From Candidatus Flemingiibacterium merdigallinarum (GTDB lineage: Bacteria > Bacillota > Clostridia > Oscillospirales > CAG-272): a DNA stretch of 64,000 nt. Position numbers and translations under genes: made by a program. The DNA lies in assembly GCA_904386005.1 (NCBI GenBank), contig CAJFKR010000003.1:7587-71586 (forward strand), read 5' to 3'. Position 1 is the stretch's first letter, and each line of letters begins with the position of its first letter. Below, piece by piece: positions 9,905 through 44,300 of the stretch. The notes under the pieces were generated by a model that did no database searches, was not told where the DNA came from, and saw only the letters and a program-made list of their open reading frames with translations.

Positions 9905-10030
9905 AATAATCTCCCTGTTTTTTATTTTATATAAGCTATTATAGCAAAAGTGCGGGCGGTTGTAAATAGACAAATCAACCATATCAGCACAAATCGACCA
10001 TGTTCGATAATCAAGGAAAGGAATATTCAC

Positions 10031-13914: not shown

Positions 13915-13943
13915 TTGACTTTTGTCGGGCGTTATGATATTAT
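13915..13943 (+). promoter_or_regulatory. SigmaA-type promoter of the large ABC locus
   Basis: TTGACT (13915-20), 17 nt, TATTAT (13938-43). It lies ~220 nt upstream of the start codon at 14165. Confidence 0.55.
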
Positions 13944-14164
13944 ATTTGTATGAAAAAATCGGTGGGCTGGCAGACGATGAGCATCGGTAATCGAATGTAT
14001 CATAAAGACGCTTTGTTCGCACGATTGGCTCATTGTCTGTCCGCTGTGACCGCGCGTCCACGCATATGTGCCATAAATGCCGTCTCGGCGTTCGGGATAT
14101 TCGCGGCAGGCTGCAAAGCTATTATTTTCCCTTCAAAGTAAATTCTTGGCAGGAGGAAAGGTTA

Positions 14165-17164
14165 ATGAAAAAAACAAAATTGACAAGGTTAATTGCTGTT
14201 TTTTTATCATTGATGATGCTCTACTCCGTGATTGGAGCCGGCGACTTTACGGTTTCGGCTGCTGAGGAAGGCGACGATGAAACGGCCTCATCGACGGTCA
14301 GCTATGATATAGCTGACGTCCAGGACCTGCTCAACGCCGAATCCTACGCCGATTACGCGGAGCGCAACGCGGATGTCCCGCGCGGCACATCAACGATAAC
14401 AATCAACGCGGTTGACTACAACACGGAGCTGACCGACGCCGATGTTGAGGTCGTGAATAATTATAACGGCACCACCGGCAGCGCGCTGCTCACGCCGAAC
14501 ACCGGTTCAGTGGTGTGGGACGTCGAGATTCCGAAGACCGGAAAATACGCGATCGACATCGAGTATTCATTCCCGACCGACGGAAAATCGACCGCGATCG
14601 AGCGCAAGCTGCGCATCGACGGCGAGTATCCGTTCAAGGGTATAAGATACCTCTCGTTTACCAAGGTATGGCAGGATCAGTTCGAAACTGACGAGAACGG
14701 AAACGACGCGTACAAAACCGATATCAACGGCAATGACATCAAGGCTCAAAAGGAAATCGTACCTACGTGGAGAACCTACACTTTAAGCGACTCCACCGGT
14801 TACGACATAGACCCGTATGAGGTAGTCTTTGAGGCCGGCTCGCACACGCTGGCACTCGAAGCCGACCGCGAGGTGCTGGTCATAAAGTCGATTACGATTT
14901 ACCCGTATGAAGACCTTCCTACATGGGAAGACGTCAAGGCTGAATATTCAACTAACGGCTATCAGCCGGCGACCGGAGCCGAACCGATAATTCTCCAGGC
15001 GGAGTTCCCGGACTACACTTCGGACAGCACGATCTATGCCGCAAACGACAGAACCTCGGCTCTCACTCAGCCGCAGAGCTCTTCGAAGTCGCTTCTGAAC
15101 ACGCTCGGAAGTACGAAGTGGCAGTCGGTCGGACAGTGGATTGAGTATTCGTTCACCTGCGAAAAGAGCGGTCTTTACGACATAGTCACACGCTACAAGC
15201 AGTCGGATGTCTCGGGTATGTATACCTCGCGCCGTATTTACATAAACGGCGAGATTCCGTTCGAGGAAGCCAATTATCTTCAGTTCAATTACTCGGATAC
15301 CTGGCAGACCGAAGTCCTAAACAACGGACAGGAGCAGTTCCAATTTTACTTTGAAGAGGGACAGACCTATACAATCAAGCTTGAAGTCGTACTCGGCGGC
15401 ATGAGCGAGATCATCGGTCGGGTTCAGGAATGTCTTACATCAATCAACAACGATTATCTGAAGATACTCCAGATCACCGGTGCTGACCCCGACGTTTACC
15501 GCGACTATAACTTCAGAAACCTGATCCCCGATACTATCAAGGATCTGTATGCACAGTACCTTGAGCTGACCGCGGTTTCGAATCTCATCACCGAGATCAA
15601 CGGAATCAAGGGAAGCAACACCGCAACGCTTGACAACGTCGCGCGCGTGCTTCAGACGATGGCTACCGATGAAGACGAGGTCGCAAGAAATATGGCGACC
15701 TTGAAGAGCTACATCGGTACTCTCGGTACCTGGCTCAACACCGCGACAAACCAGCCGGTGCTCCTCGACTACATCTGCATCCAGCCGTCCGGCGAAGACC
15801 TCCCCAAGGCTGAAGCAAACTTCTTCCAGGCAGCCGGATTCGAAATTACCTCGTTCGTAATGTCTTTCTTCACCGACTACAACAACCTCGGCGCGACCAT
15901 CGAGCTTGATGAAGATGACGTAATCGAGGTTTGGATCGCGACCGGACGCGACCAGGCACAGGTCGTCCGTTCAATGATCGATAACGGCTTCACTTCCCAA
16001 ACGAACATCGGCGTTTCGCTGAAGCTCGTAACCGCGGGTACGCTTCTACCGGCAACCCTTTCGGGCACCGGACCTGACGTAAACCTCGGAAGCGCGCAGG
16101 GCGACCCGGTACAGTACGCGATTCGTAACGCGGTGCTCCCGCTGAACGATTTCGACACCTTCGACGAAGTGACATCGCGCTTCTCCGAAGCCGCGATGGT
16201 TCCGGTAACGCTGTACGGCACGACTTACGGTCTGCCGGAAACCCAGACCTTTAATATGCTCTTCTACCGCAAGGATATCTTCGCGGAGCTTGGAATTGAC
16301 ATTCCTAAGACCTGGGACGACTTGATGTCGATAGTTCCGTATCTTCAGTACAACCACATGGAAGTCGGTCTGCCGAAGGAGCTTGCCGGTCTCCAGATGT
16401 TCCTCTACCAGATGGGCGGCGAGCTTTATGCCGACGAAGGTATGAGAATCAACCTTGACTCAAACGTCGCGCTTGAAGCGTTCGACTATGAGTGCTCCTT
16501 CTTTACACAGTATTCGTTCCCGGTAACCTATGACTTCCCGAACCGTTTCAGAACCGGTGAAATGCCGCTCGGTTTCGCTGACTATATCGGCACCTACAAC
16601 CAGCTGTCGATATTCGCGACTGAAATCCGCGACCTCTGGGAATTCGTACCGATCATCGGTATGGAGGACGAAAACGGCAACATCAACAACGTTTCGGTAT
16701 CTACAATTACCTCGCTTGTTATGATGAACGGCTGCAAGAACCCCGAGAACGCATGGAAGTTCATGGACTGGTACACCTCCGCTGAAACCCAGTCGACTTA
16801 CGCAAACGAGATGGTTGCTATAGTCGGACAGGGCGCGATGTACGCAACCGCTAATAAGGAAGCGCTCGAATCGCTGCCGTGGTCGACGACCGACCTTGAG
16901 AATATTCAGGCGCAGTACAACAACCTCGCCGCTATTCCTGAAATGCCGGGCGGCTACATCATCACTCGTTACGTACAGTTCGCGTTCCTTGACGCTTATA
17001 ACAACAACGCTGACCCTGTAGAAGCACTGCTCGGCTACGTTGATGATATCAACAAGGAAATCACGAGAAAGCGTAAAGAATTCGACCTTGATACCCTCGA
17101 GCTGGGCGAAACTCTGGCTGACAGAGAAGCGGCTCAGAACAATGAGGAGACCACAGCCGAATAA
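14165..17164 (+). CDS. Giant secreted solute-binding protein (999 aa): signal peptide, two CBM-like beta-sandwich modules, helical linker, C-terminal family-1 SBP fold
   Basis: AGGAGGAAAGG lies 5 nt before the ATG at 14165 (the tracked start at 14033 lacks an RBS). MKKTKLTRLIAVFLSLMMLYSVIGAGDFTVSA-AE is a signal peptide. There is an internal duplication (GKYAIDIEYSF...RKLRIDGEYPFKGIRYLSFTKVW versus GLYDIVTRYKQ...RRIYINGEIPFEEANYLQFNYSDTW). The C-terminal ~420 aa is SBP-like (IEVWIATGRDQ..., TWDDLMSIVPYLQ). Confidence 0.75.
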   Translation: MKKTKLTRLIAVFLSLMMLYSVIGAGDFTVSAAEEGDDETASSTVSYDIADVQDLLNAESYADYAERNADVPRGTSTITINAVDYNTELTDADVEVVNNYNGTTGSALLTPNTGSVVWDVEIPKTGKYAIDIEYSFPTDGKSTAIERKLRIDGEYPFKGIRYLSFTKVWQDQFETDENGNDAYKTDINGNDIKAQKEIVPTWRTYTLSDSTGYDIDPYEVVFEAGSHTLALEADREVLVIKSITIYPYEDLPTWEDVKAEYSTNGYQPATGAEPIILQAEFPDYTSDSTIYAANDRTSALTQPQSSSKSLLNTLGSTKWQSVGQWIEYSFTCEKSGLYDIVTRYKQSDVSGMYTSRRIYINGEIPFEEANYLQFNYSDTWQTEVLNNGQEQFQFYFEEGQTYTIKLEVVLGGMSEIIGRVQECLTSINNDYLKILQITGADPDVYRDYNFRNLIPDTIKDLYAQYLELTAVSNLITEINGIKGSNTATLDNVARVLQTMATDEDEVARNMATLKSYIGTLGTWLNTATNQPVLLDYICIQPSGEDLPKAEANFFQAAGFEITSFVMSFFTDYNNLGATIELDEDDVIEVWIATGRDQAQVVRSMIDNGFTSQTNIGVSLKLVTAGTLLPATLSGTGPDVNLGSAQGDPVQYAIRNAVLPLNDFDTFDEVTSRFSEAAMVPVTLYGTTYGLPETQTFNMLFYRKDIFAELGIDIPKTWDDLMSIVPYLQYNHMEVGLPKELAGLQMFLYQMGGELYADEGMRINLDSNVALEAFDYECSFFTQYSFPVTYDFPNRFRTGEMPLGFADYIGTYNQLSIFATEIRDLWEFVPIIGMEDENGNINNVSVSTITSLVMMNGCKNPENAWKFMDWYTSAETQSTYANEMVAIVGQGAMYATANKEALESLPWSTTDLENIQAQYNNLAAIPEMPGGYIITRYVQFAFLDAYNNNADPVEALLGYVDDINKEITRKRKEFDLDTLELGETLADREAAQNNEETTAE

Positions 17165-17193
17165 TCGCAAAACAGTAATCCTCCTGCCAAAAT

Positions 17194-17232
17194 CCGATAT
17201 CCGGTCGGGGAAACCCGGCCGGGGAATATCGG
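17194..17232 (+). other. Intercistronic GC-rich stem-loop with GAAA tetraloop (no U-tract)
   Basis: ccgatat-ccggtcggg-GAAA-cccggccgg-gga-atatcgg gives 16 bp in total. It sits between the binding-protein gene and the first permease gene, where mRNA-stabilising hairpins usually occur. Confidence 0.55.
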
Positions 17233-17279
17233 GCTCTTGACAGTGTATCTACTAAATCTGTTATAAGGAGAGAACAAAC

Positions 17280-18239
17280 ATGTCACAGAACGCAGCGGCG
17301 GTAAACAATTCGCCAAAGCCGACGGCTCGCAAGGACATGACAAAGGCGCAGTGGACGCTGAAGGAAATACGTCGCAACAAAACGGCGTATATAATGATAG
17401 CTCCCTTCATGATTCTGTTCACTATCTTTACTGTCTTCCCTGTTGCGCTGTCGATCATTCTGAGCTTCACGCAGTTCAACTTGCTTGAAGTGCCGGTGCC
17501 TGTCTTCATGGATAACTACATCAGATTGTTCCTTGACGACGATATATTCCTTACCGCCTGCCAGAATACACTCGTATTCGCGGCAGTCACAGGACCGGCT
17601 TCCTACTTCTTGTCCCTGCTCATCGCATGGTTCATAAACGAGCTTACCCCGAAGATCCGTGCGCTTGTAACCCTCGTCTTCTACTCTCCGTCGATTTCGG
17701 GTTCGGTTTACCTCATTTGGGGTATCATCTTCTCGGACGACGCGTACGGTTACGCTAACGCGTGGCTGACCGAGTTCGGTATAATTACCGAGCCTATACT
17801 TTGGTTCCACGATGCAAAATACGTCATGGGTCTTTGTATAGTAGTCGCGCTTTGGACCTCGCTCGGTACCTCGTTCCTTTCGTTCATCGCAGGTCTTCAG
17901 ACCATCGACAAATCGCTTTATGAAGCCGGCGCGGTCGACGGTGTAAGAAACAGATGGCAGGAGCTCTGGTACATTACCCTTCCGACTATGAAGCCGCAGC
18001 TTATGTTCGGTGCGGTCATGTCGATAACCGGTTCGTTCGGATTCGGCGCTATAGTTACCGCGCTCGCCGGTATGCCGTCTGTCGATTATGCGGCGCATAC
18101 GATTATGCACCACCTCGAGGACTACGGCGGACAGCGTTTCGAGGTCGGTTACTCGTCGACTATCGCGGTTGTGCTGTTCGTAATAATGGTCGGTGCTAAC
18201 CTGATAGTCAAAAAATTATTATCGAAGGTAGGACAATAA
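17280..18239 (+). CDS. ABC transporter permease (MalF/LplB-like)
   Basis: 319 aa and multi-TM. EAA loop YEAGAVDGVRNRWQELWYITLPTMKP. AAGGAGAG RBS. Confidence 0.88.
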   Translation: MSQNAAAVNNSPKPTARKDMTKAQWTLKEIRRNKTAYIMIAPFMILFTIFTVFPVALSIILSFTQFNLLEVPVPVFMDNYIRLFLDDDIFLTACQNTLVFAAVTGPASYFLSLLIAWFINELTPKIRALVTLVFYSPSISGSVYLIWGIIFSDDAYGYANAWLTEFGIITEPILWFHDAKYVMGLCIVVALWTSLGTSFLSFIAGLQTIDKSLYEAGAVDGVRNRWQELWYITLPTMKPQLMFGAVMSITGSFGFGAIVTALAGMPSVDYAAHTIMHHLEDYGGQRFEVGYSSTIAVVLFVIMVGANLIVKKLLSKVGQ

Positions 18240-18240
18240 G

Positions 18241-19113
18241 ATGGCAAGATTAAGAACCAGAAAACATAAAGTTGTCCTCAACCGCTCAGTTGGCGGTGAT
18301 ATCGGTATCAACGTTTTGCTCATCCTCATGGGCGCGTTCATGTTCCTGCCGATGCTCTACGTTATAATGCAGTCCTTGAAGCCGCTTGACGAACTCTGGA
18401 TGTTCCCGCCGCGCTTTTACGTTGTAAGCCCGACGCTCAAAAACTTCTCCGACCTGTTCAAGCTGATGAGCACCTCGTGGGTTCCGTTCTCGCGCTACAT
18501 ATTCAACACTGTGTTTATCTCGGTAGCCGGAACGCTCGGCAACCTGCTTCTGTCCTCGCTTGCCGCTTACGCGCTCGCGAAGATAAACTTCCCCGGACGC
18601 GGCTGGATATTCCAGGTCATCGTCCTCTCGCTGATGTTCAACTCAACGGTCACCAGCATTGCAAACTTCTTAACGATGTCGACCCTTCACTGGATTGACA
18701 CCTATCTCGCAATCATCGTTCCGGCATGGTGTACTTCTCTCGGACTTTATCTGATGAAGAACTTCATGGATACCGCGGTTTCTGACGCGGTGCTCGAGTC
18801 CTCACGACTTGACGGCGCGACCGAATTCTACACATTCTTAAAGATAGCGATGCCGATGGTTAAGCCGGCTTGGCTGACACTTATTATCTACTCGTTCCAG
18901 ACTCTGTGGAACGCCGGCGGTTCTATCTACATCTATTCCGAACAGTTAAAGACCTTCAACTACGCAATCAGCCAGATCGTTGCCGGCGGTATCGCCCGTG
19001 CGGGTGCGAGTGCCGCTTCGACAGTTATCATGATGGCGGTGCCGATCACCGTCTTCGTCGTCACTCAGAGTAATATCATTGAGACGATGGGCTCATCGGG
19101 TATGAAGGATTAA
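18241..19113 (+). CDS. ABC transporter permease (MalG/LplC-like)
   Basis: 290 aa. EAA loop LESSRLDGATEFYTFLKIAMPMVKP. It starts 1 nt after the upstream stop. Confidence 0.88.
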   Translation: MARLRTRKHKVVLNRSVGGDIGINVLLILMGAFMFLPMLYVIMQSLKPLDELWMFPPRFYVVSPTLKNFSDLFKLMSTSWVPFSRYIFNTVFISVAGTLGNLLLSSLAAYALAKINFPGRGWIFQVIVLSLMFNSTVTSIANFLTMSTLHWIDTYLAIIVPAWCTSLGLYLMKNFMDTAVSDAVLESSRLDGATEFYTFLKIAMPMVKPAWLTLIIYSFQTLWNAGGSIYIYSEQLKTFNYAISQIVAGGIARAGASAASTVIMMAVPITVFVVTQSNIIETMGSSGMKD

Positions 19114-19124
19114 GGAGGGTAAAT

Positions 19125-21251
19125 ATGAAAAAAATATCAAGAATACTTACCCTCGCGGCACTGGTGATTCTTGTGCTCGGCTGCCTTCCGATCAACGCTA
19201 TCACTCCGTATTCAACTTATACCTACTCAATCGGCGGCTTTTCGCTTATGTCGCCTGACGCATATACACCGGACAGACAGATCGATTCAAACTACATGGG
19301 CGTAACTCCGGCAATCGACGACCCGCGCGATTTGTTCGTAGATCAGTATAAGAATATTTACATCGCGGACGCCGCGAACAACCGTATCGTTGTACTTGAC
19401 AGATATTACAAGCTCAAGTTCTACATAAATACGTTTGTCAACGGACAGGGTGTTCCGGACTCGCTGACCAACCCTTCGGGCGTATATGTCACCGAGGATA
19501 AGATTTATGTAGCCGACACCGACAACAATCGTATTGTAATGTTCGAGCTTGACGGCACCTTCTATAAGGTTATCGAGGAGCCTGACTCGGATGTTTTCCC
19601 GTCCGGTTCTATTTACAAGCCGGTCGCAATCGCAGTCGATAACTATGGTCGTATCTATGTTATTTCGTCGACCACCTACATGGGTGTCATCGCGATAAAC
19701 GAAAACGGAGACTTCCAGGGCTTCATCGGCGCGCAGAAGGTTACGATCGACGCGCTCTCGATAATCTGGAGACGTTTCCAGACTGAAGAGCAGAGAGCTT
19801 TGTCGCAGCAGTATGTATCGACTGAGTTCAACAACATCACCATCGACGACAAAGGCTTCATCTATGTAACCACCTCGTCTATCGACGAGAATCAGCAGCA
19901 GGCGGCTATAAACTCGAAGGACGGAACTTATGCTCCTGTCAAGAAGCTGAACACCGCGGGTTCGGACATCATGAAGCGTAACGGCTTCTTTGGTCCGGGC
20001 GGTGAAGTTAACATCACGAATATCTCGACCGCTGATATCACCGGTCCTTCGAAGATCATCGACGTCGCTATCGGACCGGAGGAGACCTGGTCGATAATCG
20101 ACGAAAAGCGCAGCAAGATTTACACCTATGACTCCGACGGAAATCTTCTGTTCATCTTTGGCGATACTGGACAGCAGCTCGGTAACATTCAGTCTATCGA
20201 AGCTATTGCCTACCTCGATAATGACATTCTCATTCTTGACAAAACTTCCGATAACATCACTGTTTACAGACGTACTGAGTACGGCGATCTGCTGCTTGAA
20301 GCTATCAGAAATACAAATGAACGTAACTACGACACTACGATTGACTACTGGATGGAAATACTTAAGCGCAACAACAACTTTGACTCGGCTTACATCGGTA
20401 TAGGCAAGAGCCTTTACAGAAGCGCTGACTACGAAGAATCGCTTACCTATTACAAATCCGCGTATGACACGGAGAATTACTCCGAATCGTTTAAGGAAAT
20501 CAGAAAAGCTTGGATTTCGAAGTATATCGTTCTGATTCCGATAATCGTAATTGCGATCGTTGTCCTTATCGTATTGTTTAACAAATACGCAGCAAAGCTC
20601 AACAAGAAGACGCAGCTCAAAAAGGGCAGAAAGACCTTCTGGGAAGAGCTTATCTACGCGAACCATGTCATATTCCACCCGTTCGACGGTTTCTGGGATT
20701 TGAAGCATGAATATCGCGGTTCGGTCAGAGCCTCGTTTGTATGGATCGTAATCGCTATTCTGACATTCTATTATCAGAGCGTCGGTACCGGTTATATCTT
20801 CAATCCTCAGGAAGGCGGTTCGACAATATTGGTTCAGCTGACCGCGGTGCTCGTACCTGTACTGCTTTGGACCGTATCCAACTGGTGCTTGACCACTCTG
20901 TTCGACGGCGAAGGCAGCTTCAAGGATATATTTGTCGCAACCTCTTACGCTCTGGTGCCGATTCCGATACTTATTATCCCGTCGGTCATCATATCAAACT
21001 TCTCGCTCGCATCTGAAGCTACCATTATCAATCTGCTTGTCTCGCTCGCATTCATCTGGTGCGGTCTCCTGATCTTCTTCGGCACAATGGTAACTCATGA
21101 CTACACTTTCTCGAAGAATGTCATTACATCCCTCGGCACAATCGTCGGAATGGCTATTATCATGTTTATTGGTATCCTGTTCTCGACGCTGCTTGCTAAG
21201 ATTGTAAGCTTTATTTCGAGTATTGTTATCGAAATCACGTATCGTATGTAA
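19125..21251 (+). CDS. Membrane protein: signal peptide, six-bladed NHL-repeat propeller, TPR-like segment, C-terminal Yip1-type multi-TM domain
   Basis: NHL-like blades are YKNIYIADAANNRIVVLD, EDKIYVADTDNNRIVMFE, YGRIYVISS, KGFIYVTTS, SKIYTYDSDGNLLFIFG and NDILILDKTSDNITVYR. The helical repeats include YYKSAYDTENY. Five hydrophobic helices follow from KYIVLIPIIVIAIVVLIVLF onward (FHPFDGFWDLKHE...). Confidence 0.65.
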   Translation: MKKISRILTLAALVILVLGCLPINAITPYSTYTYSIGGFSLMSPDAYTPDRQIDSNYMGVTPAIDDPRDLFVDQYKNIYIADAANNRIVVLDRYYKLKFYINTFVNGQGVPDSLTNPSGVYVTEDKIYVADTDNNRIVMFELDGTFYKVIEEPDSDVFPSGSIYKPVAIAVDNYGRIYVISSTTYMGVIAINENGDFQGFIGAQKVTIDALSIIWRRFQTEEQRALSQQYVSTEFNNITIDDKGFIYVTTSSIDENQQQAAINSKDGTYAPVKKLNTAGSDIMKRNGFFGPGGEVNITNISTADITGPSKIIDVAIGPEETWSIIDEKRSKIYTYDSDGNLLFIFGDTGQQLGNIQSIEAIAYLDNDILILDKTSDNITVYRRTEYGDLLLEAIRNTNERNYDTTIDYWMEILKRNNNFDSAYIGIGKSLYRSADYEESLTYYKSAYDTENYSESFKEIRKAWISKYIVLIPIIVIAIVVLIVLFNKYAAKLNKKTQLKKGRKTFWEELIYANHVIFHPFDGFWDLKHEYRGSVRASFVWIVIAILTFYYQSVGTGYIFNPQEGGSTILVQLTAVLVPVLLWTVSNWCLTTLFDGEGSFKDIFVATSYALVPIPILIIPSVIISNFSLASEATIINLLVSLAFIWCGLLIFFGTMVTHDYTFSKNVITSLGTIVGMAIIMFIGILFSTLLAKIVSFISSIVIEITYRM

Positions 21252-21274
21252 TAACAGGATAGGAGTTATAGTAA

Positions 21275-24200
21275 ATGAAAAAATTCAGATTATTATCGGC
21301 ATTCCTGACTGTTGTTATGGTTTGGGGTGTGCTTGCAAGTCTACCGGTCTTTGCCGCAGAGGCTGAGACCACCGAAGACGGTGTTCTGATTCCTGGATGG
21401 GACGACGAAGAAGGAGTTCCTACCATCGATTATGTAACACAGCTCTTCAACACTCCCGAGGATAAGCTGGCTACCATGACGAAGTATCTCGATAAGGGAA
21501 ACTTTGAATTGTATGTAGAGCCGATTTCTGGTGAAATTGCGTATGTCAACAAAGTGACCGGACAGATTCTTTTCTCGAATCCATACGACGTCTCCCAGAC
21601 AAGCGCATCGGAATCAATAAAACAACAGCTTCTCTCGCAGATTGAGATCAAGTATACCGACAACGACTCTCAGCTCGAGCTTCACAGCTTTGTTGAAGCC
21701 TGCCAGAGAGGTCAGATCGTCGTAAAGAAGATTAAAAACGGCGTTCGTGTCGAATATACTATGGGTCGTGAAGAGACCCGTAAGCTCGTTCCGAAACAGA
21801 TTGAAAAAACTCGTTTCGAAACCTTGATTCTTGCGAATATCCCCGAAGGTCAGGCGCTCAACAAGATGAACGCGTTTTATCAGCTCAAGGACCCGTTTGA
21901 TCCGAACCTGACAGAGCGTGCAAAGCGTGAGCTGCAGGCGACCTTCCCCATAACAAACGAAATGGCGATCTACATCTTCGACCCGTATGCGTCCGACCGT
22001 GAGCTTAACGAAATCGAAGGCTATATCAAGCAGTACTGCCCTGAATATACGTATGAAACCCTCGAAGAGGACCATACGATGACAGAGTATGAAGGAAAGG
22101 ATGAAGCACCGGTTCTGTTCAGACTTTCGCTCGAATACACGCTCGATGAAGATGGCTCGCTCGACGTCCGTCTCCCCGCGAACGGTATCCGTTTCGACGA
22201 GAGCTCGTTCCAGCTCGACTCGATCACTCCCCTGCCGTGGTTTGGAGCCGGTTCGAGCAATTACAGCGGCTATACATTCATCCCCGACGGTTCGGGTACA
22301 CTCGTCCGTTTTGAGGACGTCGGAACCAAGCCGCTGACCCTGTCCGGTCAGATTTACGGACCTGACTACGCGTATCAGGAAATCACTGGCTTCCAGCACA
22401 AGGAAGTTATGAGGCTTCCGGTATTCGGTGTAGTTGAAACAAATGTAGCACTCCCGATAACAGAAACTGACGCCACCACCGGTGAGACCACGACGACCTA
22501 CGCCGAGATTGAAACGGCAGACGGTGAGATTTACGAGAAAAAGACCAACGGCTTCCTCGCGATTATTGAGGAAGGCGACGCGCTCGCAAGCATCACCACC
22601 GAGCACGGCGGTACAGTTCATTCCTACAACAGTGTCAACGCGTCCTTCTCACCTCGTCCTAAGGACTCGTATAACCTCGCTGAAGCAATTTCGGCCGGTC
22701 AGGACGCTACCTACACGGTCGTTTCCGAGCGTAAATACACCGGAAGCTATCGCATTAAGTACATAATGCTGACTGAGCCCGAGCTCGCGGAAGCTACTGG
22801 TTTTTCCGATTATTATGAAGCATCCTATGTCGGAATGGCTACCGCATACAGAGAATACCTTGAGAATGAAGGAATTCTCACCGACCTTGAAAATGTAAGC
22901 GATTCGATCCCGCTTTACATTGAGTCGTTTGGCTGCCTTGAGGATATAGAGCGCATTCTTTCAATCCCTGTTGAAGTTTTGAAGCCGTTGACCACATTCG
23001 AAGATTTGAAGTCGATGTATACACAGCTCTCTGAAGCCGGTATTACAAACATCAACTTCAAGCTCACCGGATTTGCAAACGGTGGTATGAACGATACCTC
23101 AGCGTATAATGTTAAGTTCGAAAAGGTAGTCGGCGGTAACGACGGCTTCACTGAATTCGTTTCTTATGCACAGTCGAACAACTTTGGCGTATATCCTGAT
23201 TTCGACTTTGCGAACATCGGTATGTTCGAAATGTTCGACGGCGTTTCGATGAGAAAGCACCTCATCAAGACGATGGATAACCGCTACACAAGTAAACGTT
23301 ATTACGACTCGACGCTCCAGTCCTACGAGAGAGGTTACTCGCTCGCGGTATCACCTTCGGTTTATGACTATTTCTACGAGCACTTCAAAGAGGACTACTC
23401 TGATCTCAGCCCGATGGGTCTGTCCGTATCAACTCTCGGTACCGACCTGAACTCCGACTTCGATAAGAAGGAGCCGTACAACCGCGAGGACAGCAAGGAA
23501 TTCACGACCGACCTGCTAGCAGATATTGAAACTGACTACCAAAACGTCATGATCGATGGTGGTAACCTTTACTCGCTGCCGTATGCGGATCATATTATCA
23601 ATGTTTCGCTTGACTCCAGCCGCTTCTCTAATGCAAGTGAAGCTGTGCCGTTCATGGGTATGGTGCTTCATGGTAGTATGAACTTCGCCGGCACTGCTAT
23701 CAATATGGCAGGCGACACCCAGTATGAACTGCTTAAGGCCATCGAAAACGGCGCGTCACTTTACTTCACGCTTTCGATGCAGAACACTTCGCTGCTTAAG
23801 GAAGACATTGAATTCAACAAGTACTATTCAATATCGTTTGATATTTGGTATGAAGAACTTGTTTCGCTTTACAACACGCTCAATGACGCGATCGGTGATG
23901 TTCAGGACAAGAAGATCGTCGACCATGAATTCCTGATTGGCGAGCGCGTACCGTCCGCTGAAGAAATTGAAGCTGACCGTATCGCCGAGGAGGAAGCAAG
24001 ACTTGCTGAGGAAGAAGCTGAAGCACTTGCGGCTGAAAAGGCTGAAAAGAAGGAGCTTCTTGAACAGAGACTCGCTGAACTCGCAGGTGAAGAGTATGAG
24101 CCTGAGGAGCCAGAGGAGGAAGAAGAAGAGGAAGAAGTCGTCACCGAGGGTTACCAGTATACTAAGTATACCTCCGACGACGGCAGAATCGTCAAGGTCA

Positions 24201-24313
24201 CCTACGAAGGCGGAAAGTCTTTCATACTCAACTACAACAACTTTGAAATCACTGTCGTTGATGATGGTACTACCTACACAATCGGCGCACTTGATTTCGT
24301 TCAGGTTGATTAA
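21275..24313 (+). CDS. Secreted 1012-aa protein of unknown function (possibly DUF5696-like), with acidic coiled-coil/poly-Glu tract and a small C-terminal domain
   Basis: Signal peptide MKKFRLLSAFLTVVMVWGVLASLPVFA-AE. I recognise no catalytic motif. The acidic tract is EEIEADRIAEEEARLAEEEAEALAAEKAEKKELLEQRLAELAGEEYEPEEPEEEEEEEE (23960-24137). The DUF label is from memory only. Confidence 0.5.
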   Translation: MKKFRLLSAFLTVVMVWGVLASLPVFAAEAETTEDGVLIPGWDDEEGVPTIDYVTQLFNTPEDKLATMTKYLDKGNFELYVEPISGEIAYVNKVTGQILFSNPYDVSQTSASESIKQQLLSQIEIKYTDNDSQLELHSFVEACQRGQIVVKKIKNGVRVEYTMGREETRKLVPKQIEKTRFETLILANIPEGQALNKMNAFYQLKDPFDPNLTERAKRELQATFPITNEMAIYIFDPYASDRELNEIEGYIKQYCPEYTYETLEEDHTMTEYEGKDEAPVLFRLSLEYTLDEDGSLDVRLPANGIRFDESSFQLDSITPLPWFGAGSSNYSGYTFIPDGSGTLVRFEDVGTKPLTLSGQIYGPDYAYQEITGFQHKEVMRLPVFGVVETNVALPITETDATTGETTTTYAEIETADGEIYEKKTNGFLAIIEEGDALASITTEHGGTVHSYNSVNASFSPRPKDSYNLAEAISAGQDATYTVVSERKYTGSYRIKYIMLTEPELAEATGFSDYYEASYVGMATAYREYLENEGILTDLENVSDSIPLYIESFGCLEDIERILSIPVEVLKPLTTFEDLKSMYTQLSEAGITNINFKLTGFANGGMNDTSAYNVKFEKVVGGNDGFTEFVSYAQSNNFGVYPDFDFANIGMFEMFDGVSMRKHLIKTMDNRYTSKRYYDSTLQSYERGYSLAVSPSVYDYFYEHFKEDYSDLSPMGLSVSTLGTDLNSDFDKKEPYNREDSKEFTTDLLADIETDYQNVMIDGGNLYSLPYADHIINVSLDSSRFSNASEAVPFMGMVLHGSMNFAGTAINMAGDTQYELLKAIENGASLYFTLSMQNTSLLKEDIEFNKYYSISFDIWYEELVSLYNTLNDAIGDVQDKKIVDHEFLIGERVPSAEEIEADRIAEEEARLAEEEAEALAAEKAEKKELLEQRLAELAGEEYEPEEPEEEEEEEEVVTEGYQYTKYTSDDGRIVKVTYEGGKSFILNYNNFEITVVDDGTTYTIGALDFVQVD

Positions 24314-24333
24314 TCAAAAGAGAGGTGTAATAA

Positions 24334-25308
24334 ATGAACAGCGAATTAAAGCTCAATAGTGTCCCCGCTGCTAAAAAGCGCAAGCGTGGTGCCTCTCTTG
24401 ATAAGCGCAAGGCGCGTGCGGGATGGATGTTTGTCATGCCGTTCGTCCTCAGCTTTATCATCATCTACCTGCCGATCATCATTGACTCGATAAAGTACAG
24501 CTTTAACAAGATCAAGATCGGTCAGGGCGGCGGCTACACTCTCGAATTCGTCGGCTGGGAAAACTACCAGGAAGCGTTGTTTGTCGACCCTCAGTTCGTT
24601 CAGACTCTGACTTCCGGTATCCAGCAACTGATCTTTGACATCCCGGCAATAGTCATATTCTCGCTCTTTATGGCAGTGCTTCTGAACCAGAAAATGGTTG
24701 GACGCGCCGCGTTCCGTGCAATCTTCTTTATTCCGGTTATTATCTCGACCGGTATCATTGACAAGATTGACCAGGCAAACACCATGCTCGACTACATGGA
24801 GAACGTCGAAGAGGGTATCAACGACGGTTCCGGACAGAACACGACCAACGAAATCTTGTCCGCGGTCGATATCGAGCGTTTGTTTGACAACATGAAGGTT
24901 GGTACCGAGCTGGTTGACTACGTTGTAACGATGGTTAACAACGTCTACAACATCATCAACCGTTCAGGCGTACAGATGCTGATTTACCTCGCAGGTCTGC
25001 AGTCCATCTCGCCGTCGATTTACGAATCGTGCGATATAGACGGTGCGACCGCATGGGAAACCTTCTGGAAGATCACCTTCCCGATGATCAGCCCGATGAT
25101 TCTCGTAAACGCGATTTACACAGTCATCGACTCGTTTACATCACAGTCCAACCAGGTTATGACTTACATTTCGAATGTATATGACCAGGCTGGAGGAAAC
25201 GTGCTCAGCTCGGCAATGGCATGGATTTACTTCCTTATCGTTCTTCTCATAATCGGTTTGGTTGCCGCACTGCTCAGCGCGTACGTATTCTACCAGAAGC
25301 GCGATTAA
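24334..25308 (+). CDS. ABC transporter permease (MalF-like), second pair
   Basis: 324 aa. Basic N-terminus, then TM helices. EAA loop YESCDIDGATAWETFWKITFPMISP. Confidence 0.85.
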   Translation: MNSELKLNSVPAAKKRKRGASLDKRKARAGWMFVMPFVLSFIIIYLPIIIDSIKYSFNKIKIGQGGGYTLEFVGWENYQEALFVDPQFVQTLTSGIQQLIFDIPAIVIFSLFMAVLLNQKMVGRAAFRAIFFIPVIISTGIIDKIDQANTMLDYMENVEEGINDGSGQNTTNEILSAVDIERLFDNMKVGTELVDYVVTMVNNVYNIINRSGVQMLIYLAGLQSISPSIYESCDIDGATAWETFWKITFPMISPMILVNAIYTVIDSFTSQSNQVMTYISNVYDQAGGNVLSSAMAWIYFLIVLLIIGLVAALLSAYVFYQKRD

Positions 25309-25321
25309 TGGAGGGTAAAAA

Positions 25322-26380
25322 ATGAATTCTCAACAAGCACCTCAGGCTCCCCGCGTAATGAAGGAGAGCAAAAACAAAATCAGAGTTGAGTTTGAAAGAA
25401 CCCCTCTAAAAGAAAGATTAAAGGCGAAATTCTTAAACCTTAACTTTCTTACAAATGTCGTCTGGGTTATTTTCAGACTGGTTCTGCTTATCGGTATTTC
25501 GTATGTCATTCTATTCCCGTTCTTCGCGAAGATCTCCGGCTCATTTATGAGCCGTGAGGACTTCGTTGACGTAACGGTCAAGCTGATACCGAAATATCCT
25601 ACGCTTGACACTTACAGAGCTATCATCCAGGAAAATGATTATTTCGAAGCTCTTCTGAACACGACGATCCTGTCGGTTCTCTGCGGCATTATCCAGACAT
25701 TTATGTGCTGTGTAATCGGTTACGGTCTTGCGAAGTTTAAGTTCAAAGGAAGCAAGCTTATATTCTTCCTTGTTATCTTCACAATGGTTGTTCCGCATAG
25801 AACACTCCAGCTCTCGATGTTCATGAAGTTCAGATACTTCGACATTCTTGGTATATTCAATCTCCTCGGAGGCGGAGTATTCGAAGGATTAAAAGTTTTA
25901 CCTTTCACATCCCTGAACCTGAACAATACATATTGGCCTCTGGCACTTCTGTCGATTGGCGGACTTGCGTTTAAGAACGGTCTGTACATCTTCATGATGC
26001 GTCAGTTCTTCCGCGGTGTACCGGATGAGCTTGAAGAGTCGGCATACATCGACGGAAGCGGCACTTTCAGAACCTTCATTCAGATTATACTTCCGCTTTC
26101 CGTGCCGATGATGATCACTATCTTCCTGTTCGCGTTCTCGTGGCAGTGGACAGATAACTTCTACACTACGATATTCTTCACAAAAGCCTCGATGGTTCTG
26201 ATGCCGGATATCATCGCGATACCAAAGACATTGGACACCGCATATGCGGCGCAAAACCTGTATGAATCGGCGATACGTAATACCTGCGGTCTGCTGATAC
26301 TCGCTCCTCTGCTCATAATCTACATCTTCATGCAGAGATTCCTTATCGGCGGTATCGAGCGTTCTGGTATTGTCGGTTAA
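25322..26380 (+). CDS. ABC transporter permease (MalG-like), second pair
   Basis: 352 aa. EAA loop EESAYIDGSGTFRTFIQIILPLSVP. Confidence 0.85.
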   Translation: MNSQQAPQAPRVMKESKNKIRVEFERTPLKERLKAKFLNLNFLTNVVWVIFRLVLLIGISYVILFPFFAKISGSFMSREDFVDVTVKLIPKYPTLDTYRAIIQENDYFEALLNTTILSVLCGIIQTFMCCVIGYGLAKFKFKGSKLIFFLVIFTMVVPHRTLQLSMFMKFRYFDILGIFNLLGGGVFEGLKVLPFTSLNLNNTYWPLALLSIGGLAFKNGLYIFMMRQFFRGVPDELEESAYIDGSGTFRTFIQIILPLSVPMMITIFLFAFSWQWTDNFYTTIFFTKASMVLMPDIIAIPKTLDTAYAAQNLYESAIRNTCGLLILAPLLIIYIFMQRFLIGGIERSGIVG

Positions 26381-26400
26381 GAAATCATATCTAAAATTAA

Positions 26401-26430
26401 AAGAGACAGTCGAAAGGCTGTCTCTTTTAC
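26401..26430 (+). terminator. Rho-independent terminator ending the ABC locus
   Basis: Stem aagagacag / ctgtctctt with loop tcgaaagg. The run of T's overlaps the 3' arm and is followed by ttac. Confidence 0.75.
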
Positions 26431-26503
26431 AATATATTAAATTGATATAGGTAGCATATTTAAAAGGTGAAACGCTATATCGCATTTATATACATAAAAT
26501 ATA

Positions 26504-26528
26504 CCCCCTCGAAGCTGCTTCGAGGGGG
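26504..26528 (-). terminator. Rho-independent terminator after carB-dapF
   Basis: 11-bp stem ccccctcgaag / cttcgaggggg with a 3-nt loop. The minus-strand reading is followed by a T-rich tatatttta. Confidence 0.7.
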
Positions 26529-26542
26529 TGATCATTTTATAA

Positions 26543-29500
26543 TCAGATTATCGTTCTGCCTTCGTAGACTTTGACCGCGCCGCCGGAAAGGAATACAGCT
26601 TCGTCCGTGTAACGAATCTTGAGGTCGCCGCCTTTGAGCTTTACAGTGATTTCCTCGTTCTTCGGACAGTAGCCGTTTTCAACCGCCGCGACAACCGCCG
26701 CACAAGCACCGCTGCCGCAGGCAAAGGTTTCGCCCGATCCGCGCTCCCAGACGCGCATCTTCAAGGTCGTTCGATTCAAAACCTTAATAAATTCGGTGTT
26801 GACGCGCTCGGGGAAAAGCGGGTCGTTTTCGAACTTCGGTCCGATGACTTCGAGATTCAAATTGTCGAGCGGAGCATCGAGATCTTCGCTGAATACGACG
26901 CAATGCGGATTGCCCATTGATACGCAGGTAATGCGGTAACGCCCGTCAGCGACCTGTACCGGTACGCCTATCGCGGTGTTTCCGGCGAGTTTGACCGGTA
27001 TAAGCGCCGGCTTTAATTCAGCCTTGCCCATATCGACTGTCGCCCAGCTTACTTCGCCGTTGACCTTTTCGACGGTTACCTTGCGGACGCCGCTCAAGGT
27101 TTCAATGGTAACGCTGTCGCCGTCGACAAGCTTGTTGTCAATCATATATTTCGCGATGCAGCGCGCCGCGTTGCCGCACATCTTGCCCTCGGTTCCGTCA
27201 AGGTTGAACATACGCATCTTGACGTCAGCCTTGTCTGACGGATACATCAGTACGACGCCGTCTCCGCCGATGCCGAAGTGGCGGTCGGCGAGCCGTATGG
27301 ACAGTCCCTCAGGATTGTCGATCTTCTGGTTGAAGCAGTTGAAGTAGATGTAGTCATTGCCGCAGGCTTCCATCTTGGTGAATTCAAGTGAAGCCTTTTC
27401 GGTGCGCATATCGTTGATGTCAACAAGCTCGGTGCAGGCCTGCGAATAACGGCTCTTCAGGCAATCGGCGACCGCGTTAGCGGTGTCGATCGAAGTCAGA
27501 CAGGGAATCGCGCGCTCGACTGCTTTACGGCGAATCTTTACGCTATCGCGCGACGGAATGCGTCCTTTTGCGGAGGTCGAAATCACATAATCGATCCAAC
27601 CGCTCTCGATGAGCTTGAGCGTGTTGTTTTCGCCCTCGTGAATTTTGTCGACGACCTTGACTTTCATGCCGTAATCTTCGATAACTTTCGCAGTACCACG
27701 GGTAGCGTATAGCTCAAAGCCGAGATCATAATAACGCTTCGCTACCTCGCCGACCTCCGACTTGTCACTGTCACGTACCGTGATGAATACGCCGCCATGC
27801 TTTTTAAGCGTGTAGCCGGCTGCGATCAGTCCTTTGTAGAGCGCTTCTTCACGAGTGCTTGCCAGACCGAGGACTTCGCCGGTCGATTTCATCTCGGGTC
27901 CGAGGTGATTGTCGACGTTCATCAGCTTTTCGAATGAGAATACCGGAACCTTGACTGCGACATACGGCGAGGTTTTATACAGACCGACACCATAACCCAT
28001 GTCTTTGAGCTTTTCACCGAGCATAGCGCGGGTTGCGAGGTCGACCATCGGCACGCCGGTGACCTTGCTGATATAGGGAATCGTGCGCGACGAACGCGGG
28101 TTGACTTCGATTACATAGAGCTGGTCATGGTAAATCAGATACTGAATATTGACAAGTCCCATGATTTTGAGCGAGACTGACAGCTTCTTCGTGCAGTCGA
28201 TGATGTCGTGGCGGAGCTTGTCGTTGATGTTCCACGCCGGATAGACGGCAATCGAGTCGCCCGAATGGATACCGGTGCGCTCGACGTGCTCCATGATTCC
28301 GGCGATGAGGATGTCCTCGCCGTCGCAGATTGCGTCGACTTCGAGCTCAATGCCCATCAGATATTTGTCGATAAGCACCGGATTCTCGATGTTGTGCGAC
28401 AGGATGATCGCCATGTATTCCTTGATGTCGTCGTCGGTGAACGCAATTATCATATTTTGTCCGCCGAGGACGTAGGACGGGCGCATAAGCACCGGATATC
28501 CGATCCGGTTCGCGATTTCAAGCGCTTCCTCGGTGGTCATGACCGTATAGCCAACCGGGCGCTTGATGTGGTGCTCCTCGAGCAGCTCGTCGAAGCGCTC
28601 GCGGTCCTCAGCGGCGTCGATCGAGTCGGCGCTCGTGCCGAGAATGTTTATATTCTGCTTTGATAAGAACTTGGTCAGCTTGATGGCAGTCTGACCGCCG
28701 AACGCGACGACGACGCCGACCGGATTTTCGGTCTCGATGATATTCATTACATCTTCGTTTGTCAGCGGCTCGAAGTAGAGTCGGTCAGCGGTGTCAAAGT
28801 CGGTCGAAACCGTCTCGGGGTTGTTGTTGACGATTACGACGTCATATCCGGCTTTCTTCAGCGACCAGACGCAGTGTACCGAAGCGTAGTCGAATTCGAT
28901 ACCCTGACCGATGCGGATAGGTCCGGCGCCAAATACGATCACCGTTTTCTTGTCGGGCGATTTGTGCTCGTTGATGAATTCGGTAGCTTCGTTCTCGTCG
29001 TCATATGTCGAATAGAAGTAAGGAGTCTCGGCGCTGAATTCGGCCGCGCAGGTGTCGACCATTTTGTATACGGCGCGGCGGTGCATACCCTCGGGCAGCG
29101 GTTTGCCGGACAGCTCTTCGATTACCTTGTCCGGGAAGCCGAGCTTTTTCGCGTCGAGGTAGAGCTCACTTGTCAGCGGTTCGGTCGCGAGTATCTGTTC
29201 GAATTCGGCGAGGTGGCGCAGCTTGCAGAGGAACCACTCGTCAATCATAGTGCATTCATGTATGTGCTCGACCGAAACTCCGCGGCGAAGCGCTTCATAT
29301 ACAATGAATATCCGCTCGTCGTCAATTTCATGCAGACGTGCTTCAATCTCGTCGTCGGTCATATCGCGGTATTTCGGCGCGGACATACTCGACATACCGA
29401 TTTCGACTCCGCGCACGGCTTTCATCATCGCCTGCTCGAAGCTCGTGCCGATAGCCATTACCTCGCCGGTCGCCTTCATCTGCGTGCCGAGCGTGCGCTT

Positions 29501-30604
29501 AGCATAGACAAATTTGTCAAACGGCCACTTCGGGAACTTGACGACGACATAGTCGATCGACGGCTCAAAGCAGGCGTAAGTCTTTTTTGTGACCGCGTTG
29601 ACAATTTCAGGAAGCGTGTATCCGATTGCGATTTTGGCAGCGACCTTGGCAATCGGATATCCGGTCGCCTTTGACGCGAGCGCGGACGAACGCGATACAC
29701 GCGGGTTGACCTCGATTACCGCGTATTCGAAGCTCTCGGGATGGAGCGCGAACTGCACGTTGCAGCCGCCTTCGATTTTCAGCTCGTTGATAATAGCGAG
29801 CGCGGCTGAACGCAGCATCTGATATTCCTTGTCGGACAATGTGACAGCCGGAGCGATGACGATGCTGTCGCCGGTGTGGACGCCGACCGGGTCTACATTC
29901 TCCATTGAGCAGATCGTGATTACGTTTCCGGCGCTGTCGCGCATTACTTCGAACTCGATCTCTTTCCAGCCGGATACGCACTTTTCGACCAGCACCTGAT
30001 TTATTGGCGACAGTCGAAGTCCGGTCTCGGCGATTTCGATAAACTCCTCCTCGGTGTTGGCAATGCCGCCGCCGGTGCCGCCGAGCGTGAACGCCGGACG
30101 GATGATAAGCGGATAGCCGTTCGAGTGAGCGAACGCGAGCGCGGCTTCGATGTCATTGACAACGGTAGACGGAATGACCGGCTGACCGATTTTCATCATC
30201 GTGTCCTTGAACGCCTGACGGTCCTCGGCTTTGTCTATAGTCTCGGGATTTGCGCCGAGCAGCTTGACTCCCATTTTGTCAAGGAAGCCTTCTTTGGCGA
30301 GCTGCATACTCAAGGTCAGACCGGTCTGACCTCCGAGCGTCGACAACAGGCTGTCGGGACGCTCTTTTTCGATGATGCGCTTGATGGTGGGGAGGGTCAG
30401 CGGCTCGATATATACCTCATCCGCCATTGCGTTATCGGTCATTATCGTCGCAGGGTTGGAGTTGACGAGTACGACCTCAAGACCGTCTTCCTTTAACGCG
30501 CGGCAGGCCTGTGTTCCCGCGTAGTCGAATTCGGCTGCCTGTCCGATTACAATAGGACCGGAACCGATAACCATGACCTTTTTTAACGCTTTATTGAGCG
30601 GCAT
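26543..30604 (-). CDS. carB: Carbamoyl-phosphate synthase large subunit fused in frame to diaminopimelate epimerase (1353 aa)
   Basis: Residues 1-~1065 are a complete CarB: two ATP-grasp halves ([19 protein letters not shown] / [18 protein letters not shown]) plus an MGS-like tail. Residues ~1070-1353 are a complete DapF ([46 protein letters not shown]). No stop codon separates them. Confidence 0.85.
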
Positions 30605-32937: not shown

Positions 32938-33085
32938 AAGTTTTATATTGTGGAACTATGGAACTTAGAATAGAAATATACTTGAAAATTATGCGATAAA
33001 ATCCCATAATATCAGAATTATCATCGCTTCAAACTAAAAAATACTGATATATGGAACTTGTGAAACTAATTCTGTAACCGCGAAA

Positions 33086-33967: not shown

Positions 33968-34078
33968 TGCGTTCTCCGTTTCATGCGCAAGCCGGTTTAA
34001 ATATATTCCGCCAAGCGCGGTATAATGCGGTATAATATTGTACATTCCGCCGCGGATGTGCGCTTGACGGTCGTATGC

Positions 34079-35934: not shown

Positions 35935-36001
35935 CTATTTTTATGTGTTGTGACGAATTCGTAAAACTCGCGAGTTTGAGAATTTATTTTCAAACTTTAC
36001 C

Positions 36002-44256: not shown

Positions 44257-44300
44257 ATTATTAAGCTGATACTTTACTTTGCTGAGAGGAGATGGAACCA

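Follow-up and report, generated by a model that had tools for sequence, protein, structure and literature searches.

Why would seven genes that encode two pairs of ATP-binding cassette (ABC) transporter permeases, a single binding protein and two further large extracytoplasmic proteins be kept side by side in a bacterial genome? The question is raised by a locus in Candidatus Flemingiibacterium merdigallinarum, located in the 64,000-nucleotide (nt) stretch of contig CAJFKR010000003.1 that was analysed here and that we call the window. Seven genes on the + strand occupy positions 14165-26380 and encode, in order, a giant solute-binding protein of 999 amino acids (aa), permeases P1 and P2, a 708-aa membrane protein with NHL, TPR and Yip1 regions, a secreted 1012-aa protein of the DUF5696 family, and permeases P3 and P4. 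We hypothesize that this cassette encodes a multi-component cell-surface machine for glycan capture, cleavage and import. We place the probability of this reading at about 0.55 and give much less to any specific detail of it. Coordinates below refer to the + strand unless otherwise noted.

Conservation of the cassette is the starting point of the argument. Relatives were found in at least 535 places in species-representative genomes, and the best 80 of these loci were taken as the synteny sample. The full set of seven genes occurs, with unchanged order and on one strand, in 64 of the 80 loci, while the remaining 16 are contiguous sub-runs ended by contig ends; the pattern is broken in none. 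Mean identity to the window proteins over the 80 loci is highest for P2 (76 %), the most conserved protein of the cassette, followed by P1 (71 %), P3 and P4 (70 % each), the NHL/Yip1 protein (64 %), the DUF5696 protein (55 %) and the binding protein (53 %). Among uncultured Clostridia of the gut and rumen the cassette is common, and the same seven-gene order is found in two cultured species, on plasmid pNP243 of Butyrivibrio fibrisolvens D1 (26 % identity for the DUF5696 protein and 58 % for P1 and P2) and on a 509-kb plasmid of Paenibacillus cellulosilyticus KACC 14175 (25 % identity for the DUF5696 protein). Identities per protein range from 25 to 58 % in these two cultured cassettes, and in both of them each of P1, P2, P3 and P4 has its own ortholog. 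The cassette is an ancient and rigid unit, conserved one-to-one across Clostridia and Bacilli. An initial annotation, made from the window sequence alone, had noted that Yip1 and DUF5696-like proteins co-occur with sugar ABC genes in Firmicutes and had suggested looking at gene-neighbourhood conservation across Clostridia and Bacilli; the co-occurrence is real in the 80 related loci and in both cultured species, and the gene order is kept.

This strictness bears on a simpler explanation of the locus, namely that two independent, ordinary ABC sugar importers lie side by side, with two unrelated surface proteins inserted between them and no joint machine. Strict conservation of seven genes across two classes, with an invariant order in 64 of 64 complete loci down to about 25 % identity, does not sit easily with such an arrangement, nor does the presence of one binding protein for two permease pairs in both the window and the Paenibacillus cassette. 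Gaps of 1-23 nt between most of the genes also argue against it, since they indicate translational coupling. On the other side, both permease pairs are complete as MalFG-type units and have EAA loops, MsmX-type ATPases shared by many systems of the CUT1 type are well known in Bacillota, and the two ordinary sugar-binding protein genes that directly follow P4 in Butyrivibrio could serve P3 and P4. On balance we consider two independent importers quite unlikely.

Complete or near-complete cassettes were also seen in assemblies labelled Methanocorpusculum sp. (L025), Selenomonadaceae (L055) and Bulleidia sp. (L066). The identities of these cassettes are typical of Clostridia loci; mis-binning of metagenomic contigs is the likely explanation, and horizontal transfer may be another.

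If the cassette cleaves a glycan, the probable enzyme is the secreted 1012-aa protein (21275-24313), which carries a signal peptide. The initial annotation had assigned it to no recognisable family while mentioning DUF5696-like proteins. The mention was apt, and the protein does have a family: Pfam DUF5696 (PF18952) matches residues 261-887 with 487.7 bits against a cutoff of 25.6 (E 6.7e-146), and 44 of 44 aligned homologs match DUF5696 too. The family is large, with 5,488 clusters at 50 % identity (E < 1e-3), and 46 blocks of the assembly collection list a DUF5696 protein of identical sequence.

An AlphaFold model generated with 44 homologs (predicted local distance difference test, pLDDT, 80; predicted template-modelling score, pTM, 0.77) was compared to known structures using Foldseek. 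The best matches are two enzymes of glycoside hydrolase (GH) family 129, the 3,6-anhydro-D-galactosidase ZgGH129 (5opq, E 2.7e-26, template-modelling score 0.70 on the target, almost full target length) and the alpha-N-acetylgalactosaminidase NagBb (5wzp, E 1.6e-19, score 0.69), followed at lower rank by a Flavonifractor galactosaminidase and by GH31, GH101 and GH36 structures. The predicted protein shares with GH129, GH101, GH31 and GH36 a succession of beta-sandwich, (beta/alpha)8 barrel and C-terminal beta domain. It differs from GH129 in having only about 10 % identity, about 250 additional N-terminal residues and a helical insert before the last beta domain. At the sequence level, phmmer of the DUF5696 protein against PDB found nothing, and the DUF5696 profile had a sole PDB match, to GH129 NagBb, which is not significant (E 1.5) and which aligns DUF5696 positions 516-634, on the barrel start, with the topologically equivalent NagBb residues 231-360. 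According to the model, DUF5696 has a GH129/GH101/GH31-type glycosidase fold and is a probable glycosidase; what it has in common with GH129 is the predicted fold and not the sequence.

The distribution of conserved residues fits this prediction. The predicted barrel (residues ~516-891, 22820-23947), delimited by an alternating strand and helix pattern in the model, contains the near-invariant residues E550, D655, D728, R737, D739, N764, H799 and E824. Across 50 diverse members (41-50 % identity), D338, D364, D464, R461, R737, N764, H799 and E824 are invariant, and D728 (49 of 50), D739, D655 and E550 are nearly so. Active sites typically show such a pattern of invariant acidic, His and Arg residues, and D728, located after predicted barrel strand 4, is the best candidate for the nucleophile. 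Two other aspartates were considered as the catalytic Asp and rejected: D724, part of a 'DLN' motif like that of GH31 and GH36, is only 48 % conserved in diverse members, and D761, at the end of strand 5, is not conserved. The suggestion in the initial annotation that the 1012-aa protein is an unrecognised enzyme gains support from the modelled fold together with the invariant acidic residues. As for the linkage, the matched structures are described as alpha-acting (alpha-GalNAc-ases, alpha-galactosidase, alpha-glucosidase and alpha-xylosidase), and the GH129, GH31, GH101 and GH36 families consist mostly of retaining alpha-glycosidases, which is why we guess an alpha-linked substrate.

The barrel is followed by a long helix and acidic linker (residues 895-960, 23957-24154) that is the site of an insert in other family members. 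The insert is short in the window protein and ranges elsewhere from 40 to about 1,500 aa, a more than 30-fold range, so that many members reach 1,200-2,545 aa; it is rich in Ala, Glu and Lys and presumably helical. No Pfam accessory domain was found in 24 long members of 1,600-2,500 aa. The insert may be an arm placed within the usual C-terminal beta-sandwich, or it may act as a stalk and project the enzyme. A small C-terminal beta domain (residues 965-1011, 24167-24307) is conserved and kept after the long inserts in homologs, with invariant Y965, V975, Y977, L985, N986, Y987 and N988. Many members (among them P0404, P0391, P0366 and P0477) have inserts of 800-1,500 residues rich in Ala, Glu, Lys and Thr, like the stalks of Gram-positive surface proteins.

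A glycosidase fold could also belong to a protein that does not catalyse. In that case DUF5696 would bind glycans or serve a structural purpose at the surface, and with the NHL propeller it would form a receptor or sensor by which the transporters are gated. The canonical pair of nucleophile and acid/base was not identified, long stalk-like inserts resemble surface adhesins, and NHL propellers act as extracellular sensors, as in PknD (PDB 1rwi), all of which would fit. We find it hard to see, however, why several acidic residues, a His and an Arg should be invariant in diverse members of a non-catalytic protein, and a signalling output domain (kinase, helix-turn-helix or GGDEF) is found on none of the seven proteins. 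We regard this possibility as very unlikely and retain a probable glycosidase in what follows.

Capture would be the task of the 999-aa binding protein (14165-17164), which begins with an N-terminal hydrophobic helix and is conserved over its full length, with 36 % identity to the Butyrivibrio ortholog and 27 % to the Paenibacillus ortholog. Its AlphaFold model (pLDDT 85) contains two beta-sandwiches, a helical bundle and a CUT1 domain. The first beta-sandwich (residues ~70-246, 14372-14902), beta-rich in the model, resembles the CBM35 of CsxA at E 0.019 when its profile is compared to PDB. By the same comparison the second (residues ~275-409, 14987-15391) resembles, over profile positions 266-364, the CBM35 of a cycloisomaltooligosaccharide glucanotransferase (5x7g, E 3.7e-6). 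Pfam CBM_35 scores 23.8-26.7 bits on the binding protein, just below its 28-bit cutoff; 22 of 34 orthologs match CBM_35 (E < 0.01) and 26 of 34 match Golvesin_C. The helical bundle (residues ~413-528, 15401-15748), delimited by the secondary structure of the model and with no family match, joins the CBM-like modules to the binding domain.

The remainder of the protein is a CUT1-type oligosaccharide-binding domain (residues ~533-975, 15761-17089), in agreement with the initial annotation, which had assigned the C-terminal half to a binding-protein family. Pfam matches SBP_bac_1 (73 bits) and SBP_bac_8 (70 bits) at residues 602-881. The best Foldseek match is a cycloisomaltooligosaccharide-binding protein (9xf5, E 9e-20), further matches are a cycloalternan-binding protein (5f7v), a sophoro-oligosaccharide-binding protein (5yse) and MalE/GacH, and PDB sequence matches agree. 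Judged from its model, the domain resembles binders of longer oligosaccharides. The two CBM35-like modules lend support to a role in glycan capture, as had been proposed in the initial annotation.

Import would fall to the four permeases. P1 (17280-18239, 319 aa) and P3 (24334-25308, 324 aa) are MalF/UgpA-like, and P2 (18241-19113, 290 aa) and P4 (25322-26380, 352 aa) are MalG/UgpE-like, as judged from both Pfam and NCBIfam. BPD_transp_1 scores above the Pfam cutoff in all four, and all four have the EAA loop, where the ATPase docks, that the initial annotation had reported, with the motif at residue 186 in P2, 231 in P3 and 239 in P4; in P1 the loop is EAA-like, its spacing being one residue longer. 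Inspection of the sequences points to an enlarged external loop between transmembrane helices 3 and 4 of P3 and to enlarged external loops in P4. The two pairs are ancient and distinct and not recent duplicates, since the alignment of P1 with P3 is confined to 58 aa around the EAA loop and that of P2 with P4 shows 22 % identity. Both pairs have orthologs in the cultured cassettes: P1 is 58 % identical to the first permease in Butyrivibrio and 43 % in Paenibacillus, P3 is 39 % and 34 % identical to the third permease, and P4 is 42 % and 27 % identical to the fourth.

Measured against the CUT1 group of importers (TC 3.A.1.1), the locus has a family-1 binding protein and, twice over, a MalF/MalG-like permease pair; the ATPase gene is missing from the operon. 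The initial annotation had remarked that a missing ATPase is common in CUT1 systems, and this is consistent with the Paenibacillus plasmid, where a gene annotated as a UgpC-type (MsmX/UgpC-type) ABC ATPase lies directly upstream of the cassette in the same direction. Because this gene adjoins the Paenibacillus ortholog, a MalK/MsmX-type subunit is likely to be encoded elsewhere in the genome. The cassette is alike to CUT1 importers with a shared MsmX/MalK-type ATPase, such as MalEFG and AraNPQ-MsmX, in its SBP_bac_1 domain, its MalF/MalG-like permeases, its EAA loops and an ATPase gene outside the operon. Unlike them it has two non-identical permease pairs per binding protein, a binding protein that is extended at its N-terminus by about 530 residues (the two CBM35-like modules and the helical bundle) and has no lipobox, and an obligatory set of two large extracytoplasmic proteins encoded between the permease pairs.

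The second of these large proteins, the 708-aa product (19125-21251), combines a signal peptide, an NHL propeller, a TPR segment, a transmembrane helix and a Yip1 domain, as judged from Pfam, PDB matches and hydropathy. The initial annotation had named the NHL and Yip1 parts, with which Pfam agrees, and had missed the TPR segment. Orthologs conserve an AxA cleavage site and the mature N-terminus ITPYSTYTYS. Anchoring of the protein as a lipoprotein was considered and rejected, a lipobox-like Cys being kept in only 6 of 67 orthologs. The extracytoplasmic NHL-type beta-propeller extends over residues ~55-390 (19287-20294), where PDB and Pfam matches cover residues 63-252 and the C-terminal limit is our estimate; its NHL Pfam score is 38.4 bits against a cutoff of 20, and its PDB sequence matches include the NHL domains of TRIM71 (E 1.8e-14) and PknD (1rwi, E 5.4e-10). 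It is followed by the TPR segment (residues 399-454, 20319-20486), which matches consensus TPR proteins in PDB at E 4e-11, and by a membrane part (20523-21170) made of a transmembrane helix (residues 467-485), a basic loop and the Yip1 domain (residues 514-682). Yip1 (PF04893) scores 52.6 bits against a cutoff of 28.6 and nearly the whole profile is covered. Hydropathy gives six hydrophobic segments, and four segments scored as transmembrane lie within the Yip1 region (566-691).

Within the plasmid collection the complete NHL/TPR/Yip1 architecture is confined to two cassettes, those of Butyrivibrio and Paenibacillus. On pNP243 of B. fibrisolvens D1 the NHL/TPR and Yip1 parts are encoded by two overlapping genes in different frames (L085, 7789-9884), with the split between the first transmembrane helix and the Yip1 domain; the split is either natural, showing that the parts work as separate subunits, or a frameshift.

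To our knowledge YknW is the only precedent for a bacterial Yip1 protein. In Bacillus YknWXYZ, as in the cassette, a Yip1 membrane protein is encoded with an ABC transporter, and YknW modulates the assembly of the YknXYZ transporter (PMC4887032). The analogy has its limits, as YknYZ is a MacB-type exporter with a membrane-fusion protein and not a binding-protein-dependent importer, and YknW has none of the propeller and TPR ectodomain of the 708-aa protein. Mycobacterium tuberculosis PknD (1rwi) offers a second comparison in being a membrane-tethered extracytoplasmic NHL-repeat propeller; in PknD the propeller is coupled to a cytoplasmic kinase, whereas the 708-aa protein has a Yip1 domain and no recognisable output domain. 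By analogy to YknW, we propose that the 708-aa protein may act as a scaffold at the transporter or as an organizer of the complex; the scaffold or sensor put forward in the initial annotation would draw on the same analogy.

From these parts a sequence of events can be suggested. The two CBM35-like modules of the binding protein would hold the polymer, and the secreted DUF5696 glycosidase would cut or trim it, most likely at an alpha-linked sugar. An oligosaccharide product would be picked up by the CUT1 domain of the same binding protein, which would feed P1/P2 and possibly P3/P4, so that the two MalFG-type pairs would carry the product or products across the membrane. An MsmX/UgpC-type ATPase encoded elsewhere would power both permease pairs, and the NHL/TPR/Yip1 protein would hold the extracellular parts at the transporter or organize the complex, as YknW does for YknXYZ. 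The physical complex, the substrate class and the division of labour between the permease pairs are those that we infer from the proteins taken together. A more demanding version of the idea is possible, although we hold it tentatively: the cassette would form an obligate assembled machine of an undescribed kind, in which the Yip1-anchored NHL/TPR protein docks DUF5696, as the first member of a new glycoside hydrolase family, and the CBM-bearing binding protein on two ABC translocons. The P3/P4 pair, with its enlarged external loops, would be supplied with substrate although it has no classical binding protein to itself, and capture, cleavage and uptake would be mechanically coupled.

Hints at the substrate can be drawn from several of the proteins. 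For the CBM-like modules as for the binding domain, the top match belongs to the cycloisomalto-oligosaccharide (alpha-1,6-glucan) system; the folds nearest DUF5696 are those of alpha-glycosidases, and the Butyrivibrio cassette has a GH43 partner. These hints are weak and do not converge, and we assign no substrate. The flanks of the 80 loci were also considered for clues and set aside: they hold housekeeping genes (IscS, NifU, AlaRS, CarAB and a glucokinase-type ROK protein) that are variable between loci.

How the genes are expressed bears further on their function. The list of open reading frames places all seven genes exactly where the initial annotation had put them, co-directional and 1-115 nt apart; the intergenic gaps are, in order, 115, 1, 11, 23, 20 and 13 nt, and a GGAGG-like ribosome-binding site precedes each of the seven ATG starts. 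A TTG at 14033 was considered as a longer start of the binding-protein gene and found unlikely, as relatives keep the ATG at 14165 and its Shine-Dalgarno sequence, from which we take ATG 14165 to be the real start. Upstream lies a sigma-A-type promoter (13915-13943) with TTGACT, a 17-nt spacer and TATTAT and a TG upstream of the -10 hexamer; with 10 of 12 consensus positions plus the TG it is the top consensus match within 14 kb. In 11 related loci the -35 hexamer is kept nearly base for base, as are the extended -10 hexamer and the GTATGAAAAAATCGG that follows it. Just past the last stop codon, a palindromic hairpin flanked by A and T runs (26398-26429, assigned to neither strand) is the likely terminator of the operon and possibly bidirectional. 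A further strong hairpin (26502-26530) probably belongs to the convergent carB-dapF gene. The promoter and terminator proposed in the initial annotation are borne out by these features, and the spacing, the two signals and the strict synteny favour a single operon, the co-transcription of the seven genes being what these features would predict. A near-consensus and conserved promoter suggests constitutive expression.

Between the promoter and the first gene lies a 5' leader of about 215 nt (13950-14164), described here from an alignment and consensus fold of 12 leaders. It is conserved in 11 related genomes, with a 5' stem AAUCGGCGG...CCGCCGAUU, and contains a CCCUUC element about 20 nt upstream of the GGAGG ribosome-binding site that is complementary to the Shine-Dalgarno sequence, so that pairing is possible. 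A riboswitch was considered and rejected: Rfam gave no match, and the consensus fold of the 12 leaders is without covariation support because its pairs are mostly invariant. A regulatory role of the leader is only a possibility. Within the operon, a GC-rich hairpin without a T-run (17193-17232) lies between the binding-protein gene and the P1 gene, and the RNA fold of 17160-17285 is stable (-38.3 kcal/mol, z -3.2). Hairpins of this kind are often seen where an ABC operon over-expresses its binding protein, and this one may be a transcript stabilizer or an attenuator that favours binding-protein expression. A conserved AATGTGAAC motif was observed about 90 nt upstream of the promoter.

The cassette is embedded among genes of general metabolism. 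In the window it is preceded by iscS and nifU and followed by a convergent carB-dapF fusion gene and then carA; iscS-nifU is found upstream of the cassette in 25 loci. The initial annotation had recognised no ATPase, regulator or glycoside hydrolase in the operon, and the family scans agree; no match to a recognised glycoside hydrolase or other carbohydrate-active enzyme (CAZyme) family was found in or next to it. Gram-positive polysaccharide utilization loci bring together a transporter, a CAZyme and a regulator, and of these the transporter alone is recognisable by sequence in the window. The cassette would nevertheless share their logic of an extracellular enzyme, predicted here from its fold, combined with carbohydrate-binding modules and an ABC importer, and its Butyrivibrio version also has the GH43 and a histidine kinase. 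It differs from such loci in that the window locus is without a regulator or recognised CAZyme, in that the CBM-like modules are on the binding protein and not on the enzyme, and in a content and order that are rigid over very large evolutionary distances, whereas Gram-positive polysaccharide utilization loci are usually mosaic.

Several results weigh against a machine for glycan capture, cleavage and import, and they are best considered together. No regulator or cytoplasmic sugar-catabolic gene is found near the cassette in this lineage, where its neighbours are housekeeping genes, and a near-consensus promoter in a housekeeping context is unusual for a substrate-induced utilization locus. 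No ABC ATPase is encoded in the operon or among the window open reading frames scanned. For the predicted enzyme, sequence-level membership in a glycosidase family is lacking, as no glycosidase Pfam family appears at E < 5 in 44 DUF5696 members; hhalign of DUF5696 against Escherichia coli GH31 YihQ gave no match; and the catalytic pair was not mapped by motif, D724 and D761 being variable across 50 members. Finally, neither the binding protein nor the DUF5696 protein has a lipobox or sortase signal that would account for retention at the surface, and a Gram-positive importer needs its binding protein to be kept at the cell. A scaffold role of the 708-aa protein would address how the two proteins stay there.

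The same context suggests another use for the cassette. It could recycle an envelope glycopolymer of the cell itself (a capsule, a secondary wall polysaccharide or a polymer of the teichoic-acid type), with DUF5696 trimming the polymer and the fragments being re-imported. The core-genome context (iscS-nifU in 25 loci, carAB, alaS), the absence of a regulator in this lineage, the conserved leader and the near-consensus, conserved promoter, suggestive of constitutive expression, would suit a constitutive and possibly envelope-related function. The GH129 and GH101 relatives of DUF5696 cleave alpha-GalNAc-type linkages, which also occur in Gram-positive wall polymers, and the length of the DUF5696 insert (40 to about 1,500 aa) could track envelope thickness. 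The cultured cassettes speak for a different role. In Butyrivibrio the cassette is coupled, like a foraging locus, to a GH43 gene that overlaps the start of the binding-protein gene, to a histidine kinase gene upstream and to the two ordinary sugar-binding proteins after P4. It is plasmid-borne in both cultured species, which indicates that it is accessory, and CBM35-like modules together with an oligosaccharide-type binding domain are typical of the capture of exogenous glycans. Because of this Butyrivibrio context, the plasmid location and the CBM-like modules we favour the foraging of external glycans, and we consider envelope recycling unlikely.

With a role in glycan foraging preferred, what is new about the cassette can be stated. 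It works like Gram-positive ABC glycan utilization and has the features of CUT1 importers save for an ATPase gene in the operon. Four fixed differences set it apart: dual permease pairs, a CBM-bearing binding protein, an NHL/TPR/Yip1 protein, and a DUF5696 protein that lies outside the sequence families of glycosidases. We found no description of the cassette, DUF5696, PF18952 or this gene combination in the searchable literature, subscription-only papers being outside its scope. DUF5696 stands a good chance of being the founder of a new glycoside hydrolase family. The large DUF5696 family now has a testable prediction of glycosidase function and a fixed set of six partner proteins, and two cultured, experimentally accessible carriers make the function of the cassette directly testable. 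If the proposal is true, the glycoside hydrolases would gain a further family, a Yip1-type protein would for the first time have a role in a bacterial ABC importer, a case would be known in which two permease pairs depend on one binding protein, and a transporter widespread in gut Bacillota would be given a substrate.

Other genes of the window deserve mention. Four co-directional genes at 32038-37462 (- strand) encode a 486-aa protein weakly like sulfoquinovose isomerase, a 614-aa protein weakly like class I mannose-6-phosphate isomerase, a ROK kinase and an RpiR/SIS regulator, and may form an uncharacterised cytoplasmic sugar isomerase/kinase pathway, as judged from these likenesses. We found no link between these genes and the cassette, and the ROK glucokinase that lies beside the cassette in 12 other loci is no ortholog of the window's ROK protein. 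Only one recognised glycoside hydrolase was found in the window, a four-domain GH78 alpha-L-rhamnosidase (45873-48218, - strand) that lies about 20 kb from the operon and has no evident connection with it. Five open reading frames of 281-573 aa, at 8429-10150 (-), 44292-45782 (+), 27-1256 (+), 1515-2966 (+) and 48431-49276 (-), have no Pfam or NCBIfam match at the thresholds used. The gene that converges on the cassette (26543-30604, - strand) is a 1353-aa open reading frame in which CarB domains are fused to a DapF domain (residues ~1227-1344), and the same 1353-aa CarB-DapF fusion adjoins the cassette in related loci (L010, for example).

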